Shown: in pieces, positions 1,001 through 63,819 of the stretch
Position numbering within the stretch: the first letter of the stretch is position 1
Layout of the letters: every line of letters starts with the position of its first letter
DNA from: an uncultured archaeon
GTDB lineage: Archaea > Thermoproteota > Bathyarchaeia > Bathyarchaeales > Bathycorpusculaceae
NCBI GenBank assembly: GCA_963782915.1
Contig: CAWALK010000020.1
Location: forward strand, 224,001-288,000
Length of the DNA: 64,000 bases
Reading direction: 5' to 3'
Notes under the pieces: model-generated
Databases searched by the model: none
What the model was told of the DNA's origin: nothing
What the model saw: only the letters and a program-made list of their open reading frames with translations
Made by a program: the position numbers and the translations under genes

Positions 1001-1461
1001 ATATTATGAATTGCCCCAGATGCGGAAACATAAATGCAGACGGCGCAGGTTACTGTACAAAATGCGGCGCCCAACTAACTAATGCTCAAACCAGCCAGTT
1101 CCTTATCGTAACAACTCCAACAATAGCTGGCTACAAAATCAAAAAAGTACTCGGCATAGTCACAGGCTTAACACCGCGAACCAGAGGAATATTTGGTCAA
1201 TTCGTCGCAGGATTCGAATCCATGGTCGGCGGAGAAGTAACCGCATTCACCTCCGAAGTCGAGAAAGCCCGTTGGGAAGCCATCGAACGCGCCAAATCTC
1301 GAGCAATTGCGCTTGGGGCAAACGCGATTATCGGCATGGATGTGGAAACCTCATCTATGGGCAACCAAAACAGCAGTATAATGTTGTTTTCGGCGACTGG
1401 AACCGCTGTTATAATTGAGCCCGAAGACGTTGCCAAAAGCAACTCGTCAGTCTCCGTTTAG
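997..1461 (+). CDS. Zinc-ribbon + YbjQ (UPF0145) heavy-metal-binding family protein
   Basis: CPRCG...CTKCG ribbon, then TTPTIAGYKIKKVLGIVTG...GANAIIG...ATGTAV typical of YbjQ. Confidence 0.85.
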   Translation: MNIMNCPRCGNINADGAGYCTKCGAQLTNAQTSQFLIVTTPTIAGYKIKKVLGIVTGLTPRTRGIFGQFVAGFESMVGGEVTAFTSEVEKARWEAIERAKSRAIALGANAIIGMDVETSSMGNQNSSIMLFSATGTAVIIEPEDVAKSNSSVSV

Positions 1462-1487
1462 TCAGATAGCGGCTGGTTAGCTTGAGC

Positions 1488-3069
1488 TTGATAGAGAAAA
1501 CCAAGCCTTCGCTGCCAGTAGTGCCTAAACACGTGAACTACCCAAATGTGCCTCTGCATGGATTGCTGGAGGTAAGTGCGATGAGGTTTGGGGATAAAAC
1601 CGCTATTGGTGCATGGTGAGCGCACTATCTCTTATTCGGAATTGGATTCGTTGTCAATTCAGTTCGCGAACGCTTTGGTCACATTAGGTGTTGGAAAAGG
1701 TGACCGTGTGGCGATTTATTCTGCCAAACATTCCCCAATTCGTAATTGCATACTTCGGAGCCCTCAAGGCTGGTGCGGTTGTGACGGCGATTAGTCCTAT
1801 GCATCGCGAACGTGAGGTTGAGTATCAACTGCGCGATTCTGGACGCCCAAACAATCGTCACCCTCGACACACTTTACCCTGTAGTGGCGAAGGTTAAGGA
1901 AAAAACGCTCGCTCAAGCACATCATAGTCACTAAATTAGCTGAATGCTGACTTTGGAAAGCTGCTGGAGGCGCACTTCCAAGGACAAGCCCAACGTTGCA
2001 GTCAATCCCACTGAGGATTTGGCTGCGCTCCAATACACAGGCGGCACCACGGGAACAGCCAAAGCAGCAATGCTAACACATAGCAACCTCGTCTCAAACG
2101 CCCTGCAATTCGCCGCCATGATAAAGGGTACAGCAGACGATGTTTTTCTGACTGCGTTGCCGCTTTTCCACATCTACGGTATGACCACCAGTATGACCGT
2201 GCCCATTAGTTTGGGGGCGAAAATGGTGTTGCTGCCCAAGTTTGAACCAACTAAAGCCTGCGAAGCAATCCAGACAGCATAAAGTGACAGTTTTCTGCGG
2301 TGTCCCCACGATGTATCAGTATCTCCTCGGCAACCCCGACCTTGCCCAGTACGATTTGGGGTCGATTCGGGTGTGCATTTCGGGTGCTTCTTCGTTGCCG
2401 CCTCAGGTGCAGAAACGGTTCATGGAGGTTACGGGCGGGTTTTTGGCTGAGGGTTATGGCTTGACGGAGGCGTCGCCTGTTACCCATTGCAGCCCCGTTG
2501 ATAAGGCTTTGTTGCGTGTGGGTTCGATTGGGTTGCCTTTGCCCGATACGGAAGCTAAAATTGTTGATTTAGAAACAGGCGAAAAAGTTCTTGGCATAGG
2601 CGAAGCTGGCGAGTTAGCCGTAAAAGGACCCCAAATCATGAAAGGCTACTGGAACCACCCCGAAGAAACCGCCCTTGTGCTCCGCGACGGTTGGCTCCTC
2701 ACAGGCGACATCGCCCGCATGGACCCAGACGGCTACTTCTACATCGTCGACCGCAAAAAAGACCTAATCAAACACAACGGCTACAGCGTCTACCCCCGAG
2801 AACTCGAAGACATCCTCTACGAGCACCCAGCAGTGAAGCTTTGTGCAGTCGTGGGCAAGCCTGATGTGGCGGCGGGTGAGGTTCCGAAGGCGTTTGTGGT
2901 GCTAAAAGAGGGCTTCTCTGTTTCGGGTGGGATATTGAGGGTTTTTGTTAACGATAAAGTGGCACCTTACAAAGCAATTGCTGAAGTTGAGTTCAGAAAG
3001 GAGTTGCCTATTAGTTCTGCGGGTAAAGTGCTGCGTCGGCAACTGAAAGAGAAGCTGAATCCAACATAG
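1488..3069 (+). CDS. fadD: Long-chain-fatty-acid--CoA ligase (several frameshifts)
   Basis: Fragments carry YTGGTTGTAK, EGYGLTE, TGDIA, DRKKDLIK, GKVLRR; pieces 1588, 1688, 1944 and 2242 join across indels. Confidence 0.85.
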
Positions 3070-12536: not shown

Positions 12537-13629
12537 ATGGCTGAGAACATGCGTTTTAGAAACCCCGAGGTAGCGCATACTATTGCACAGAAAATCCGTG
12601 ACGTTGCACCCAAGAAGGGGCAAGTTAAGATTTGTCATGTCTGCGGAACCCACGAATGGACCATAACCCATTTTGGATTGCGCAGTTTACTTGCCAGAAA
12701 ACGTTGAAGTCATTGCCGGACCAGGGTGTCCAGTTTGTATTGTGCCCGCCGCTGAAATCGACGAAGCCGTGCAACTGGCAAAACAGGGCAAAATCATAAC
12801 CTGCTTTGGCGACGTCTTACGCGTACCAGGCAGCGAATCCTCGCTTCTAGAAGCCAAAGCAGCAGGAGCAGACGTCAGAATCGTCTATGCGCTCTCTGAT
12901 GCGGTGGAAATGGCTAAAAAGGAACGTGAAAAAGAGTTTGTATTCTCAGCCGTTGGATTCGAAACAACCGCACCAATCACCGCCGTCGAAGCCTTAGGTG
13001 ATTTGCCTGAAAATTTCAGTTTCTTGGTTTCCCATCGCCTCATCCCACCCGCCATGGAGTTATTGTTGGGTGTTGAGGATTTGCAGATTGACGGATTCAT
13101 CGCACCCGGACATGTAAGCGCCATAATAGGCTTAAAACCCTACGAGTTATTCACCAAAGTCTACCGAATGCCAACCGTCGTCGCAGGCTTCGAACCCAAC
13201 GACGTGTTAATGTCCATCTACATGATACTAAAACAGCACAGCACAAGCGAAGCAGAATTAGAGAATGAATATTCACGTGTAGTGAAGCCAGAGGGCAACA
13301 AGAAAGCGTTAGAAGTTATGCGTAGAGCCTTCAAAGTTACGGCTGGCAACTGGCGTGGCATCGGGCGACTCGACGATTCAGCATTAGCCCTAAAAGACTC
13401 GCTCGCAGAGTTTGATGCACGCAAAAAATATAGCCTCAAAGAAACGCAAGGAAAAGACATCCAAACCGGCTGCCAATGCCACCAAGTCATAGTCGGCAAA
13501 ATCAAACCCAACCAATGCCCCCTGTTCCTAAAAGCCTGCACCCCAGCCAAACCCGTCGGAGCCTGCATGGTCAGCAGCGAAGGAACCTGCCGTGTCTGGG
13601 CAAAAAACGTCGCCGCAAACACAGCTTAA
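12537..13629 (+). CDS. hypD: Hydrogenase maturation protein HypD (frameshift near 12690)
   Basis: ICHVCGTHE upstream of the indel; GPGCPVC, GFETT, PGHVS, GACMVSSEGTC. Confidence 0.95.
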
Positions 13630-14579: not shown

Positions 14580-14679
14580 TAGAGAGAGGTGAAAAGAGGC
14601 TTAAACGCAAGTAAGGGAAATTGGAAGAGAGAGGGGAAACCTGCGTTTAAGCTGGCTTTTCACTTCGCTTATCTACACT
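14580..14679 (-). ncRNA. Candidate rod-shaped sRNA with CU-rich loop
   Basis: Stems 14586-96/14656-66 and 14599-609/14642-52; TTATAT box at ~14696-14701 on the minus strand. Confidence 0.45.
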
Positions 14680-14740
14680 ATGTCCCATATGAATGATATA
14701 ATGCGATGTGACTGCCTCAAGACAACAACAAACTTCGGGT

Positions 14741-15061
14741 TTAGTGTTGCATGGATTGAGCAATTTTCCAGGGTCTGATAACGCCGGGGTTATCCCAGTA
14801 TGCACAGCACATGCGAACGGTAACGAACATTTTTATGGCTTCGTTGTTGCAGAATTTTTTGTCCGATGCATCGGTTTTTGATCCGCCGGGCAGGGTTATT
14901 AAATCGGCTTCCTGCGCTCTTTTCATATCATCTTGATTTTTTGGGTCAAGGCCGCCTTGTGTGTTGAGTTCTGTTTGGTTGGTTGGTTCCCCATTTTTTG
15001 ATATGTAGAGGCAGTTATAGCAGTTGGTTCCCATAATCTTCTGTTTTTCCAAAGAAAACAT
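14741..15061 (-). CDS. Cys-rich hypothetical protein (CxxC...C...CC)
   Basis: NCYNC ... FCN ... RMCCAYWD; GGAGG RBS. Confidence 0.65.
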   Translation of the reverse strand: MFSLEKQKIMGTNCYNCLYISKNGEPTNQTELNTQGGLDPKNQDDMKRAQEADLITLPGGSKTDASDKKFCNNEAIKMFVTVRMCCAYWDNPGVIRPWKIAQSMQH

Positions 15062-15095
15062 CCTCCAAGAAATTAATTGTGTTTAGAATTGAATT

Positions 15096-15223
15096 GCCAA
15101 GTTGAGTCTAAACCCTAAGCAGACATCCTAACCGATTCAGCACACACCCAAGACACCGAAGTGCCCCAGGCTGTTACTAGCTTCAGCTTGGATACCACAG
15201 TAAGGCGTGTTCCTCAACTTGAC
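15096..15223 (-). ncRNA. Candidate structured 5' leader RNA (riboswitch-like), family unknown
   Basis: 11-bp closing stem, 7-bp inner stem, cUUCGg hairpin; G-U pairs work only on the minus strand. Confidence 0.6.
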
Positions 15224-15288
15224 ATCACAATGCAGACTCCACATTGAATTTAATCGTTTGTTGGCACACCCTGTAATTATCAATTAGC

Positions 15289-16905
15289 CTAACGTATAGT
15301 TTGGAAAACGAAAACCCGGTATGGCGTGGCTCCGAAGGTTTCTGCTAAGGTGAAATTGCCGCTTGAAACAACAATATCCGTGATGCTTTGGGCTGTGAAT
15401 GTTGAGTTGAAGTAGTTGTAGCCTGTGTTCTCGTCCAGCATCAAGTATTTTACGTGGTTCTGTTGGCAGAGATATGTAACTTCTGTTATGTTGAAGTCCA
15501 TCGGATAGGAATCCGGCGGCAGAGTTGGGTATTGAATTAAGGTGTTGTTTTTGCCTTCGTTTGCGTTTAGGTAGAATTTGAGGACGTTTATGTTGAGGTT
15601 GTTTATGGGGCACAACACCAAAATCGAATCCGACCCATTGATTCGTTGGGCGGCGTAGTGTGTTGCTTCGGGCAGAGGTATGTAAACGGTTTCGTTAGCA
15701 ACCCACTGCTGGGCTTCAACTACGCTGTAGATTGCCGCAGAAGCGGTCAATGCAATGAGGCATCCCGCAAGAACCTTGCCCAGCAGCTTCCTATTAGCGG
15801 GGGTATTGGCGTTTTTCCAGTAGTGCTCTGCTTTGCCGTATAGTGCAGCTACAAAAGAGGCGCCGGCAACCGCCACCACCGGATAAAGCGGCAAAACATA
15901 ACGCCAAGTCCGAGAAGCAATCAAAGTAAAAAACACATAAATCACAAGCAGCCAGACAAGAAAAAACCTGTCCGCCGGCTTTCGCCGCAGAGCAAACAAG
16001 CCAATCCCAAGCGCACCCAAAACAAAGATGCCAATCGAGATGGGATGGGCAAACGCTATTCCCGGAAATGTTGACTCGATTATGTAGAAGATGGGTATGG
16101 GGAATCTGATGCTGTAAATGTTGGCTTGTGCATCATTGATTTGGAGTAGGCTTAGCCATGGTGCTATTCCTCCCGAAACCGTCAATGCAGCCAACACTGG
16201 AATGACGATGGCTGCTACGCCTACAAGGAAGAGTGTAAAGCGTGAGAGCTTAGGCTTAAACTCTGCATGGTAAAGCAGCAACGGCAAACTAATTGCAATA
16301 ATCAGTCCTGCAAGGAGCGCCGGATACTTTATCAAAAAAGCGCAGCCCAACATCAAACCACAAAACACAATCATCTTGTCTTTGCCCGAATGGATCCACT
16401 CAAGAAACAGCCAAAACGCGGCAACCAAGAAAAACATAAGCGCAACCTCCAAAATCGACAACCGAGCAACCCAAATGAACCCTGGCATAACAGCCAAAAA
16501 AATGCAAGACAAGAAAGCAACCCTTCGGTTATATGCTTTTGAGGCAAGTTTAAACAAAACAACCAGGGTTAAGAGCGCAAAAACTACCGAGACAAACCTT
16601 CCAACCCATAAACTGGCACCAAATGCAGTGAAAACTCCCGCAGTTACTATGTCAAACAAGGGCGGATAGAACGTAGTCGCCAAATACTCCGAGATTCGCC
16701 CCTGAGAAAGCAACAAAGCACCATACAAATGTGGGGTTTCATCCCAAAGGATGCTCTTAAACGCCAAATCAAAAGACAACAGCACAGCACAGGCAACGAT
16801 GAAGAGCAGGAAAAGCAGTTCCCACCTTCCAAGCCGTCGCAGTCGAGTGCTGATTTGAGAGAGCATCATATTACCTGTTAAGCCTAAAAAATGGGGCGAC
16901 GGCAT
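15289..16905 (-). CDS. GT-C glycosyltransferase (ArnT/PMT, family 39/83-like)
   Basis: WDETPH, YPPLF, KYP, RYVLP and many TM segments. Confidence 0.85.
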   Translation of the reverse strand: MPSPHFLGLTGNMMLSQISTRLRRLGRWELLFLLFIVACAVLLSFDLAFKSILWDETPHLYGALLLSQGRISEYLATTFYPPLFDIVTAGVFTAFGASLWVGRFVSVVFALLTLVVLFKLASKAYNRRVAFLSCIFLAVMPGFIWVARLSILEVALMFFLVAAFWLFLEWIHSGKDKMIVFCGLMLGCAFLIKYPALLAGLIIAISLPLLLYHAEFKPKLSRFTLFLVGVAAIVIPVLAALTVSGGIAPWLSLLQINDAQANIYSIRFPIPIFYIIESTFPGIAFAHPISIGIFVLGALGIGLFALRRKPADRFFLVWLLVIYVFFTLIASRTWRYVLPLYPVVAVAGASFVAALYGKAEHYWKNANTPANRKLLGKVLAGCLIALTASAAIYSVVEAQQWVANETVYIPLPEATHYAAQRINGSDSILVLCPINNLNINVLKFYLNANEGKNNTLIQYPTLPPDSYPMDFNITEVTYLCQQNHVKYLMLDENTGYNYFNSTFTAQSITDIVVSSGNFTLAETFGATPYRVFVFQTIR

Positions 16906-16935: not shown

Positions 16936-18001
16936 TTAGCAGATTCTTGGTACTGGGTCGCCGACTGGTCGCGCAATTATTCTTTTGCCGCCAACCAGCG
17001 TCTGCATCGCTACGCCACGGAATTGTGTGGTGGCTTCGCCGATTATCTGTGCTTCTTTACCCTGGGGTGTTTGCCTCAGAAACTCTAAGGCTTCCTCTGC
17101 CTTTTCGGGAACAACGCCGATGATGAGTTTGCCTTCGTTGCCGATTTCAAGGGGGTCTAATCCGAGCATTTCGCAGGCGGTTTGTACGTCTGGGTGGATG
17201 GGGACTTTGTCTTCGTATGTTAATATGCCAACGTGGGATTTTTCGGTCCATTCGTTGAGGGCATCTGCTAAGCCGCCGCGGGTGGGGTCTTTCATGGCAA
17301 CTACTCCCCCGACTTCACCCAATAGTCGCTGCACCATTTTGTTGAGGGGTTTCACATCAGATTTGATTTCGCTGCCAAACTTTAGCCCCTGCTGAGCTGA
17401 GAGCACGGCAATTCCGTGGTCGCCGATGGCGCCTGTAAGAATGATTTTGTCGCCTACCGCTATGTTGGAGTCGAGTGTCCAGCGGGCTTTAAGCTCCCGA
17501 GTTTTCCTGACAACTTCGAGGTTGCTGTCTAAGGCTGCGGTGCGTTTGCCGATGCCTGAAACGTTCATGACTAAGCCACCCAAGGCGCCTTTCTCGACAA
17601 CTTTGGTGTCGCCTGTGACGATGCCAACGTCTGCTTCAAGGCATGCTTCCCGCATGCTGGCGAGCACCCGCTCTAAATCTGAAATCAGCAACCCCTCTTC
17701 CAAGATGAGCCCGCATGCTAATGCAAACGGCTGTGCACCCAAACAACGAAATGTCGTTTACTGTGCCCGAAATGGCGATTCTGCCGATGTCGCCGCCTGG
17801 GAAAAATATGGGCTTCACCGCATGAGAATCACTCTTAAACACCACATCACCCACGACTGCCGCGTCATCCATAGCTTCGAGTGGGACTTCTGCGTTGGCG
17901 ATGCCGCCGAAGGCTTTAACGACGTAGTTTTTGACTAAGTCATGCATGACTGTGCCGCCTGCGCCATGCAGCATAGTGATCTTCTCATTTTTTGATGCCA
18001 T
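16936..18001 (-). CDS. hypE: Hydrogenase maturation protein HypE (frameshift near 17745)
   Basis: MLHGAGG, GGDIGRIAISGTVND, GDTKVV, DPTRGGL, C-terminal PRIC. Confidence 0.95.
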
Positions 18002-18149
18002 TGTGGTTGCTCCTAAAGGGTAAAATAGGAAGGTTAAAAGTGAAACATAAACAAATCGCACCATGAATACAAACTGTGTATGGTATCCAATAATTTTTTA
18101 TAACAAAGCCACTCGAATATACGGAAGAGTAAATCGAGGCAGAACTAAC

Positions 18150-62949: not shown

Positions 62950-63819
62950 ATGCAACATACCCTTATATGTTCTATAACATACTTAAGTATAAGCAAAGGG
63001 CTAATTTTGAACAGAGTAATGCTTAAGCAAACAGATCAGCCATCGATTACAGAAATCAGGGCTACGTCACCCCAAACAGAAATTTTAACACTCAATGGTG
63101 CCTTAATTTTAAGTGGACACCAACCCACCCTGCTTCCATATCCCGGCTTCTTCTATCGAATGTACCATTCAAACATCATGGATATCTGTCCCTATGACCC
63201 CTTTAGCCGCCACAGCGACCGCTACCAGCACCGAGTCAAAATCGGAACCGATGCAAATTGGCGCTGGCTTACCCTGCCTGTGGAAGCTTCAAATGGCTGC
63301 TCTATAATGGATGTAAAACTCAAAACTAACCTGCTCACCGATCGCTGGTGCGAATTAGAACAAGTTTACCGAAAATATCCTCTATGGAAAGAATACAGGG
63401 CTGAGTTGAAAGAGATTTTCTTTGGTTACAACTGCCTCTGGGAGCTTAACATGCGCCTTATTCTTTGGATAAGGGATATTTTGAGCATCAAAACATATCT
63501 CTCCATCTCTTATGGCGCAAAAGGCTGCGATACAACGGAGCGTGTGGCTTCGCAGTTCTCAAACTATGGCTCAGTGGTCTATCTAGCCGGCAAAGGCAGC
63601 CTGGACTATTTGGACACCCAAAAATATGAACACTTAACCAACTCAACCATCGCCATAGTCACCTATACGCCGCCCCCGCCGTTCTCAACGGTTTCTATAC
63701 TGACACCGCTAATGCTTTATGCACCCCAGAAAGTCCTGGAAATCCTAAACATCAAAAAAGAACCCATAAAAGTGATGGTTAACGGCGCTGAATACAGCGT
63801 CGATTACCTGAACAGCTAA
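62950..63819 (+). CDS. WbqC family protein
   Basis: HQPTLLPYPGFF...WLTLPV...YLAGKG; start probably downstream. Confidence 0.8.
   Translation: MQHTLICSITYLSISKGLILNRVMLKQTDQPSITEIRATSPQTEILTLNGALILSGHQPTLLPYPGFFYRMYHSNIMDICPYDPFSRHSDRYQHRVKIGTDANWRWLTLPVEASNGCSIMDVKLKTNLLTDRWCELEQVYRKYPLWKEYRAELKEIFFGYNCLWELNMRLILWIRDILSIKTYLSISYGAKGCDTTERVASQFSNYGSVVYLAGKGSLDYLDTQKYEHLTNSTIAIVTYTPPPPFSTVSILTPLMLYAPQKVLEILNIKKEPIKVMVNGAEYSVDYLNS

Follow-up and report, generated by a model that had tools for sequence, protein, structure and literature searches.

Introduction

The archaeal splicing endonuclease, EndA, has a short list of substrates, which a review gives as tRNA introns, rRNA processing stems and two isolated cases in mRNA. 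[quoted passage not shown] Cutting by EndA followed by ligation is a described route to archaeal circular RNAs (PMC12558985, PMC7714728). Here we describe an RNA with such a motif, encoded on the minus strand at 15096-15223 of a 64,000-nt stretch of DNA from an uncultured archaeon of the Bathyarchaeia (GenBank assembly GCA_963782915.1, contig CAWALK010000020.1, positions 224,001 to 288,000). This whole stretch is called the window. An initial annotation had seen at this place the multi-stem leader, possibly a riboswitch, of a Cys-rich gene in the hydrogenase-maturation (hyp) cluster. The element is a BHB splicing substrate: the bulge layout, the flanking helices, the cut and circle and the host enzymes are all present, and dependence on EndA is predicted. 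The region is probably a cassette for a circular RNA, consisting of a promoter and a rod with a BHB base, from which EndA would excise a piece that is ligated to a 99-nt circle.

The introns of archaeal pre-tRNA, for example that of tRNA-Trp, have the same succession of helix, BHB and second helix (hBHBh'), the same cut rule, a circular product and the same use of EndA and a ligase (PMC4090602, PMC12558985). The present RNA differs from them in having no tRNA host. Only the two arms of a stem serve as its 'exons', every copy carries a promoter of its own, and the excised part is a conserved rod of ~100-125 nt without C/D boxes (an exact C box occurs in 0/79 members of the family described below).

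The 46-nt intron in the 5' untranslated region (UTR) of HVO_1309 in Haloferax volcanii and the cbf5 intron of Crenarchaeota are likewise BHB elements outside tRNA and rRNA, lying by or in a protein gene, and the HVO_1309 element was detected as a circle (PMC7714728). The text of Schwarz et al. 2020 names only one BHB circle outside tRNA and rRNA in H. volcanii and gives the cbf5 intron as the sole further case (PMC7714728). Those elements are single and gene-bound, whereas the present RNA is multi-copy, has its own promoters, is spread over at least one order, lies mostly without a conserved gene and is conserved in its excised part.

The processing stems of rRNA are also long stems of flanking inverted repeats with a BHB at the base, and excision is followed by circularisation (PMC7714728, PMC12918454). 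In contrast to these, the present stem encloses no rRNA by Rfam, its product is ~100 nt and nothing suggests re-linearisation. Sequencing of circular RNA in Sulfolobus yielded small genome-encoded circles which, like this one, have no assigned function (Danan et al. 2012, PMC3326292). Among those circles C/D box RNAs and variable forms predominate, and the text of that article, supplements aside, mentions neither BHB nor a conserved BHB cassette with a promoter. Archaeal circular RNA papers of 2025-2026 deal in their text with rRNA, tRNA, omega-RNAs and C/D RNAs (PMC12558985, PMC12918454). Riboswitches and other leaders share with this RNA a conserved structure upstream of an open reading frame (ORF), and a Shine-Dalgarno-like box lies downstream of the window copy. 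The RNA differs from riboswitches in that it lacks gene-linked conservation (0/20 loci, see below), a junction pocket and an expression platform, and in being excised as a circle. No paper describing a Bathyarchaeia RNA of this kind was found in the literature, whose supplementary tables could hold unlisted circles. As a BHB substrate the element is of a known kind; it is new in being free-standing and multi-copy, with its own promoter and a conserved rod.

A rod with a bulge-helix-bulge at its base

The minus strand of 15096-15223 folds as a single long imperfect hairpin with a minimum free energy (MFE) of -58.5 kcal/mol (z -5.44), which 0/200 dinucleotide shuffles equal. The plus strand reaches only -31.4 kcal/mol (z -2.15), the structure being strand-specific because of its G-U pairs. 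The initial annotation had rightly described a structured RNA on this strand, with many G-U pairs that work on it alone. Its closing stem GUCAAGUUGAG/CUCAACUUGGC is present in the fold, as is its cUUCGg-capped hairpin, which is longer than drawn and extends to GCCUGGGGCAC/GUGUCUUGGGU. The interior of the RNA is different. The inner stems ACACGCC/GGUGUGU, UUACU/AGUAA and GUCUG/UAGAC are absent from both the MFE and the covariation-supported structure, and the proposed pseudoknot GUAUCC/GGAUGU is an ordinary nested helix within one long rod. In place of a multi-stem fold there is an unbranched rod, in which ACAC and UAGAC are parts of the BHB motif. The features of the RNA are as follows; W type denotes the type to which the window copy belongs.

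15213-15223, minus strand: 5' arm of the outer helix P1, GUCAAGUUGAG; helix h of hBHBh' and end of the 5' 'exon'
15209-15212, minus strand: 5' strand of the central BHB helix, GAAC, pairing with GUUU at 15110-15113
15206-15208, minus strand: bulge 1, ACG, with the predicted 5' cut at 15207/15206 (start of the joint; a 3-nt bulge in 79/79 members)
15144-15169, minus strand: apical hairpin of the W-type rod, GCCUGGGGCAC-UUCG-GUGUCUUGGGU (MFE and W-type alignment)
15110-15113, minus strand: 3' strand of the central BHB helix, GUUU (alignment of 79 sequences)
15107-15109, minus strand: bulge 2, AGA, with the predicted 3' cut at 15108/15107 (joint and alignment)
15096-15106, minus strand: 3' arm of P1, CUCAACUUGGC; start of the 3' 'exon'
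15108-15206, minus strand: excised 99-nt circular RNA, a rod closed at both ends (contigs of four runs)

The base of the rod is made up of the outer helix GUUGAG/CUCAAC, the central helix GAAC/GUUU (G.U, A-U, A-U and C-G), the bulges AC^G on the 5' strand and AG^A on the 3' strand (^ marks the cut) and the inner helix. The two bulges lie on opposite strands, at opposite ends of the 4-bp helix. This 4+3+4+3 layout is kept in 79/79 aligned members of the family, 48 of which have exactly GAAC/ACG/GUUU/AGA. In all 11 copies found at the level of the order GCUU faces GAGC or one of its near variants AAGC, GAGU and GAGA; GAAU and AUUU occur together in one W copy, and bulge 2 occurs also as UGA, UAA, UAG and AGG. 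Pairing in the central helix reaches 99.7% over the 79 sequences, and the third of its pairs, A-U in 68 sequences and G-C in 11, is broken in none. The seven inner pairs of P1 are 97.8% paired, with changes on both sides in six of them, and the first three pairs of the inner helix, past which the rod continues, are 95.8% paired. Taken together, the outer helix, the central helix and these three pairs are 97.9% paired, 9/14 pairs are altered on both sides and 0/500 shuffles reach them on any of five measures; the column shuffles used here and below ignore relatedness, which inflates the shuffle statistics.

The rod was also compared among the W-type copies, of which there are 12 in 11 genomes, with the MFE of the window copy as the structure. 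The rod is 84.5% paired in these orthologues against 32-44% when the 3' partners are slid, a control that is biased in favour of the structure because this was taken from the window copy's MFE. Changes on both sides are seen in 19/49 pairs, including 6/11 pairs of the apical helix (number 6), and the covariation score is reached by 0/500 shuffles.

The RNA matches no Rfam family, and the initial annotation had been unable to fit it to several known riboswitch consensus structures. Rfam gave no match at the gathering score over the whole 64-kb window, and at E<=10 over 14900-15400 it gave nothing beyond one chance snoRNA match. The usual hosts of a BHB are missing from the window, which contains no tRNA according to ARAGORN and no rRNA according to Rfam.

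The terminal loop can also be read as a K-turn bound by L7Ae, in which case the product would be a linear stable small RNA. In a K-turn, tandem G.A/A.G pairs come after a bulge of 3 nt, and the strand across from the bulge runs straight into the C helix. The 3' strand GGGU-UUA-GA-CUCAAC and the 5' strand GUUGAG-GA resemble such a bulge with its tandem pairs, but the non-bulged strand here carries four extra nucleotides (ACAC). In addition, GAAC/GUUU pairs and covaries to GAGC/GCUU, which is unexpected of a K-turn, the GA of the 3' strand varies, as the bulge 2 variants listed above show, and the cut lies precisely inside the loop. A K-turn is exceedingly unlikely on this evidence.

A circular junction in public RNA runs

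Public RNA runs were searched with 14650-15750. Four runs from four studies matched, each by a small share of words; one is from groundwater, one from freshwater and two are from anaerobic digesters, and all are labelled metatranscriptomic. Each run gave one contig, with coverage limited to 15108-15206 and one differing letter. Three of the contigs are exactly 129 nt long, which is 99 + 30 and corresponds to a 99-nt circle coming from a 31-mer assembler (k-1). These three are different rotations of the circle, with an unambiguous joint 15206>15108 and no letters shared across the joint. The fourth contig, of 118 nt, has the same 15206>15108 junction as a 15-nt loose end. Read in the RNA sense, the first nucleotide of the circle is the G that follows GAACAC, and the last is the G in UUUAG.

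The joint coincides to the nucleotide with the cuts predicted after the second nucleotide of each bulge. The 37/38 geometry of tRNA implies a cut after that nucleotide, and this is matched at both sites. Folded as a circle, the 99 nt of 15108-15206 form a rod closed at both ends (-37.2 kcal/mol, z -3.86). The flanks, namely the outer stem, the spacer, the Cys-rich ORF (ORF106) and the upstream gene, have no contig cover in the four runs. The contigs are from relatives and were found by small word shares, so these bare flanks say nothing on transcription of the flanks or on co-transcription.

A junction of this kind may arise as an artefact of tandem DNA duplication, assembly or template switching, the RNA itself being linear. 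The evidence for the circle consists of contigs, one of the runs may be DNA, and tandem full-length copies occur in some genomes of the genus, for example G060 and G061. However, tandem genomic copies keep the outer helix and would therefore not yield the 15206>15108 joint, and there is no permuted copy among 120 genomes of the genus. The three contigs that have the exact 129-nt circle length come from three studies and are differently rotated, and their junction falls on predicted BHB cut sites that are conserved irrespective of the RNA data. We regard an artefact as very improbable.

The enzymes expected of a host are encoded in the genome, which has two EndA paralogues (PF01974, 97 and 81 bits) and RtcB (PF01139, 592 bits). 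The presence of two EndA subunits suggests the heteromeric type of broad specificity.

An RNA family of the Bathyarchaeia

BLAST on the window's own genome gave short matches to both arms of the stem at one place on another contig. This place holds two further, tandem copies, and the three copies share the common ends GGUUGAGGAACACGC...GGGGUUUAGACUCAAC. The pattern GGAACACG-N60-160-GTTTAGAC occurs three times in the genome and 0 times in a reversed control. Short BLAST matches at G000:C14 and C20:312323 were rejected as chance. The two paralogues of the window copy are at G000:C12:396844-397001 and 397136-397289 (locus L002, about 1079-1236 and 1371-1524, plus strand). They are ~290 nt apart, each has its own TATA box and T-runs, and the circles predicted for them measure 123 and 119 nt. 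This tandem, A then B, is also present in records L059 and L078.

Further copies came from a looser scan of 40 relatives and from a scan of 185,579 species genomes with an exact 20-base pattern. The exact pattern gave 51 stretches. Those kept are from Bathyarchaeota/Bathyarchaeia metagenome-assembled genomes (MAGs) or are contigs binned elsewhere; seven stretches in bacterial MAGs (L049, L050, L058, L069, L082, L083 and L084) lack both stem and rod, were judged to be chance and are excluded from later counts. Combined, the scans yielded 53 distinct members, each of which folds as a single rod. RNAalifold on plain MAFFT alignments gave the base helices only, and the consensus rod is the majority of the single-sequence MFEs. 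In the alignment of the 53 sequences, which is approximate in the rod interior, the rod is 82.1% paired against 33-43% with the 3' partners slid by 1-3 columns; the consensus was derived from the same sequences, so that this control is biased in its favour. Both sides are altered in 30/50 pairs (143 cells), and column shuffles reach the observed values in 0/500 cases on four measures and in 3/500 on the fifth.

Two covariance models were built, R1 on the 53-sequence alignment and R2 on 79 sequences including the order-level copies. They contain 0 branch points, and all members are unbranched rods. Because the searches were run with Infernal's stricter filters and on samples of each group, a missing match does not mean that the RNA is absent. 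In the window's genome R1 has exactly three matches, of 122, 100 and 74 bits, the window copy being the weakest. It is positive in 88/120 genomes of the genus (58/73 of high quality), with 1-3 copies per genome, and in 25/151 genomes sampled from the order, as single copies of ~140-230 nt scoring 28-51 bits. Among 151 genomes sampled from the class R1 had no match outside the order. With R2, 15/151 class-sampled genomes are positive, and three of these, scoring 56, 41 and a weak 22 bits, belong to other orders. Rfam gave no match on the 11 loci of the order-level copies, which are from other genera. The window copy represents a paralogue at the level of the genus. The family behind it is older, with a wide spread in one order of Bathyarchaeia and detectable members in a second.

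The circles of the family members are predicted to be 97 to 195 nt long, with a median of 117. There are also longer variants (~170 and ~230 nt) with the same ends and an insertion in the rod, which score 28-44 bits with R1; examples are G046:C110:107-337, G002:C3:188581-188811 and G242:C12:132735-132964 (L164). An apical GAGAU-N3-AUCAA hairpin has been preserved in the older B type throughout families of the order, together with a mid-rod GUAAC/AAGUGC internal loop. A looser form of the apical pattern, GNGAW-N3-4-RUCRA, is found in 52/79 sequences. The W type has retained the mid-rod loop, and its tip is a plain UUCG hairpin.

These motifs bear on a reading in which the circle is an intron by-product and the functional product is the flanking RNA, that is, the 5' UTR in the window and a short hairpin of the ligated ends in stand-alone copies. 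The outer helix and 7 nt of the would-be ligated-exon loop are near-invariant, beyond what EndA needs, and the W copies linked to the hyp cluster mostly have no terminator and abut ORFs. There is also a precedent in the 46-nt BHB intron of the HVO_1309 5' UTR, where the mRNA falls on depletion of EndA (PMC7714728). A mere spacer, however, would need neither the apical GAGAU-N3-AUCAA nor the mid-rod GUAAC/AAGUGC, both of which are kept far from the splice sites, and the structure of the rod has been maintained through many compensatory changes. The circle alone was assembled in the RNA runs, which is weak evidence in the same direction. This conservation at a distance from the splice sites speaks for an importance of the excised circle itself, and we think a by-product unlikely; the outer stem, being nearly invariant in sequence, still allows that the ligated ends, or the removal of a leader intron, could have a role.

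Several other identities were considered and rejected. SRP RNA and RNase P RNA are both encoded elsewhere in the genome (154 and 184 bits). The end of a miniature inverted-repeat transposable element, a possibility that the initial annotation had raised against itself, or another dispersed repeat does not fit a genome with only three diverged copies and positions that are syntenic across genomes. For a box C/D sRNA, beyond the missing exact C box, a one-mismatch C box is found in 26/79 members and CUGA in 51/79, with no Rfam C/D family above threshold. For an H/ACA RNA, no conserved ACA was seen by eye after the stem, and the 6-mers at the 3' end are mostly of GGCA type.

The older B type was also considered for a conserved neighbour. 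A gene with an AIR-carboxylase domain lies upstream of 15-19/53 elements and Cbf5 downstream of 11-12. Neither gene is beside the 11 order-level copies or the B copy of the window's genome, and the neighbourhood was put down to local synteny. In a subset of the genus the B-type RNA is upstream of a 92-aa ORF and cbf5 (L021:1221-2243 and 11 other loci). In Crenarchaeota cbf5 is the single protein gene with a known BHB intron; this arrangement was not seen in the window's genome or at the level of the order and is probably a coincidence.

Promoter and oligo-T run

The initial annotation had noted an ATTAAAT box upstream of the RNA, and TTAAAT is found there as part of a promoter that is conserved in the family.

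15248-15264, minus strand: promoter, B recognition element (BRE)-like CCAACAAACGA followed by TATA-like TTAAAT at 15248-15253 (sequence and family hexamer scan)

A scan for hexamers with at least 5/6 matches to TTATAT found one within -45..-20 in 74/78 members, 53 of them exact, against 13% and 0.7% for random 60-mers of these loci. The hexamer starts 25-30 nt before the start of the alignment in 72/78 members, and within the genus it is preceded by CCAACA. A run of five or more T (T5) lies within 45 nt after the stem in 62/79 members; the TATA counts cover the 78 members with enough flank and the T-run counts cover all 79. The transcription start is inferred to lie near 15223-15226. Judged by these signals, most copies stand alone as transcription units of their own.

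A promoter shared by stable RNAs was considered and rejected, the SRP and RNase P genes of the genome having no CCAACA..ATTATAT. A second near-match to the family promoter motif, with two mismatches, is present in the window at 62952-62968 on the plus strand (GCAACATACCCTTATAT); the covariance model found no family RNA there.

The Cys-rich gene and the hyp cluster

Downstream of the RNA in the window are a ribosome-binding box, the GGAGG that the initial annotation had pointed out, and a small ORF.

15062-15066, minus strand: GGAGG, Shine-Dalgarno-like, 9 nt ahead of TTG at 15050-15052 (sequence)
14741-15061, minus strand: small Cys-rich ORF (ORF106), 106 aa as annotated, with CxxC...CC and no Pfam family match

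The true start of this ORF is likely to be the TTG at 15050-15052 and not the annotated ATG, because homologues begin at the window's fourth codon, which is this TTG. Nine W copies, found in eight genomes, are downstream of hypE and share its strand; farther on come hypD/hypC/hypF in convergent orientation. An ORF106 homologue starts 25-36 nt after the RNA in five genomes (G000, which is the window's own, G052, G054, G081 and, at its second copy, G007). The spacer between RNA and ORF has a Shine-Dalgarno-like box and, by eye, no TATA-like hexamer. Elsewhere the ORF is deleted or decayed (two genomes) or other ORFs follow the RNA (one). The three W copies outside the hyp cluster have T5 directly after them. 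A T5 run is missing in 7/9 hyp-linked W copies against 10/70 other members (Fisher p 1.9e-4, the relatives not being independent). Read-through from the T5-less hyp-linked copies into the ORF is therefore plausible. In the window's genome and four relatives, where neither an oligo-T run nor a promoter separates the RNA from the Cys-rich ORF, the circle probably represents an intron in the 5' UTR of this gene. This ORF may be co-transcribed with the RNA cassette.

The same arrangement was behind the proposal that the RNA is a 5' leader of riboswitch type, which would respond to a metal or cofactor and regulate the Cys-rich ORF. A conserved structure with covariation, an RNA 25-45 nt ahead of the ORF in five genomes with GGAGG after it, and the location of 9/12 W-type copies between hypE and hypD all speak for such a leader. 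The initial annotation had recommended collecting the regions upstream of ORF106 homologues; the RNA was found at 0/20 such further loci, with filters off, a result that speaks against the leader under the refuting condition which that annotation had itself set. Most members of the family stand alone with TATA and oligo-T among unrelated neighbours, and the RNA has a splicing motif as its invariant core and turns up as an excised circle. The rod has no multi-helix junction, and no alternative fold that would form a terminator or sequester the Shine-Dalgarno sequence was found. The position in the hyp cluster, taken as a hint of metal or cofactor sensing, is synteny inherited within one genus and is not independent evidence. 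We consider a riboswitch very unlikely. That the structured RNA is an undescribed one stands; that it is a cis-regulatory leader does not agree with a multi-copy and mostly stand-alone family, a splicing motif and an excised circle.

The ORF106 family is present in 40/120 genomes of the genus, often in several copies, and many of the matches are interrupted by stops. Since ORF106 homologues are mostly without the RNA and W copies occur without the ORF, a role of the circular RNA cassette in expression of the ORF would be local at best.

Other observations concern the surroundings of the W copies. A PMT_2-type glycosyltransferase gene at 15289-16905 (minus strand) separates hypE from the RNA in this genome alone; in relatives the RNA comes 20-80 nt after the end of hypE. 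In this assembly hypD (12537-13629, plus strand) and hypE (16936-18064, minus strand) are each made up of two overlapping ORFs in different frames, and relatives have single ORFs for a 363-aa HypD (L041) and a 355-aa HypE (L065). The split genes are either real frameshifts, that is, pseudogenes, or indel errors of the assembly. In G007:C125 (L041:675-814) the W copy ahead of the ORF106 homologue is a second, diverged one. In G113 (L145) the W copy has no TATA box and a changed BHB region, and ORF106 is deleted too, which hints, in very small numbers, that RNA and ORF decay together.

Discussion

In the proposed mechanism, transcription would start ~25 nt downstream of the conserved BRE/TATA promoter (15248-15264) and the transcript would fold to a long rod with a canonical archaeal BHB at its base. 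An endonuclease, presumably EndA, would cut at 15207|15206 and 15108|15107, after the second nucleotide of each bulge. A ligase, presumably RtcB, would then join the ends of the excised piece to give the 99-nt circle as a closed rod.

Several points weigh against this mechanism. The nearest-neighbour MFE favours a register with an open 6x5 loop (-58.5 kcal/mol) over the BHB fold (-54.0), a gap of 4.5 kcal/mol, and the covariation of the lowest three pairs of the inner helix fits both registers alike; it is the circular junction, not the energy model, that decides the register. That EndA cuts behind the second nucleotide of a bulge is in part general background and in part deduced from a review. 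The evidence for the circle is assembled contigs of environmental relatives (with one mismatch) and not of this organism, one run of the four carries the remark 'RNA? probably DNA', and contigs can show neither strand, ends and abundance nor linear precursors. As for the Cys-rich ORF, the 20 further ORF106 loci without the RNA and the W-type copies without ORF106 count in the same sense.

Our guess is that the circle is a stable, nuclease-resistant RNA that binds protein, since conservation extends to two internal loops and, in the older type, to the apical loop as well. A more far-reaching interpretation is possible but doubtful. It sees here a promoter-driven gene family of the Bathyarchaeia that uses the tRNA-splicing machinery to make a viroid-shaped, functional ribonucleoprotein circle of ~100-125 nt, the first conserved archaeal circular RNA gene without a tRNA, rRNA or mRNA host. 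The paralogue of this genus would have been co-opted as a 5'-UTR intron that couples a Cys-rich protein in the hydrogenase-maturation cluster to EndA/RtcB.

For annotation, the finding explains a conserved intergenic block in the hyp cluster and cautions against labelling it a riboswitch. The compact natural cassette, with its promoter-proximal stem and strict BHB, resembles elements that are now engineered for the expression of circular RNA, and a 2026 preprint describes BHB-based scaffolds for this purpose. If the proposed excision and ligation are true, a free-standing, multi-copy cassette for circular rods would widen the known role of the EndA/RtcB pathway, and the RNA would be the first lineage-specific structured RNA family for the uncultured Bathyarchaeia.

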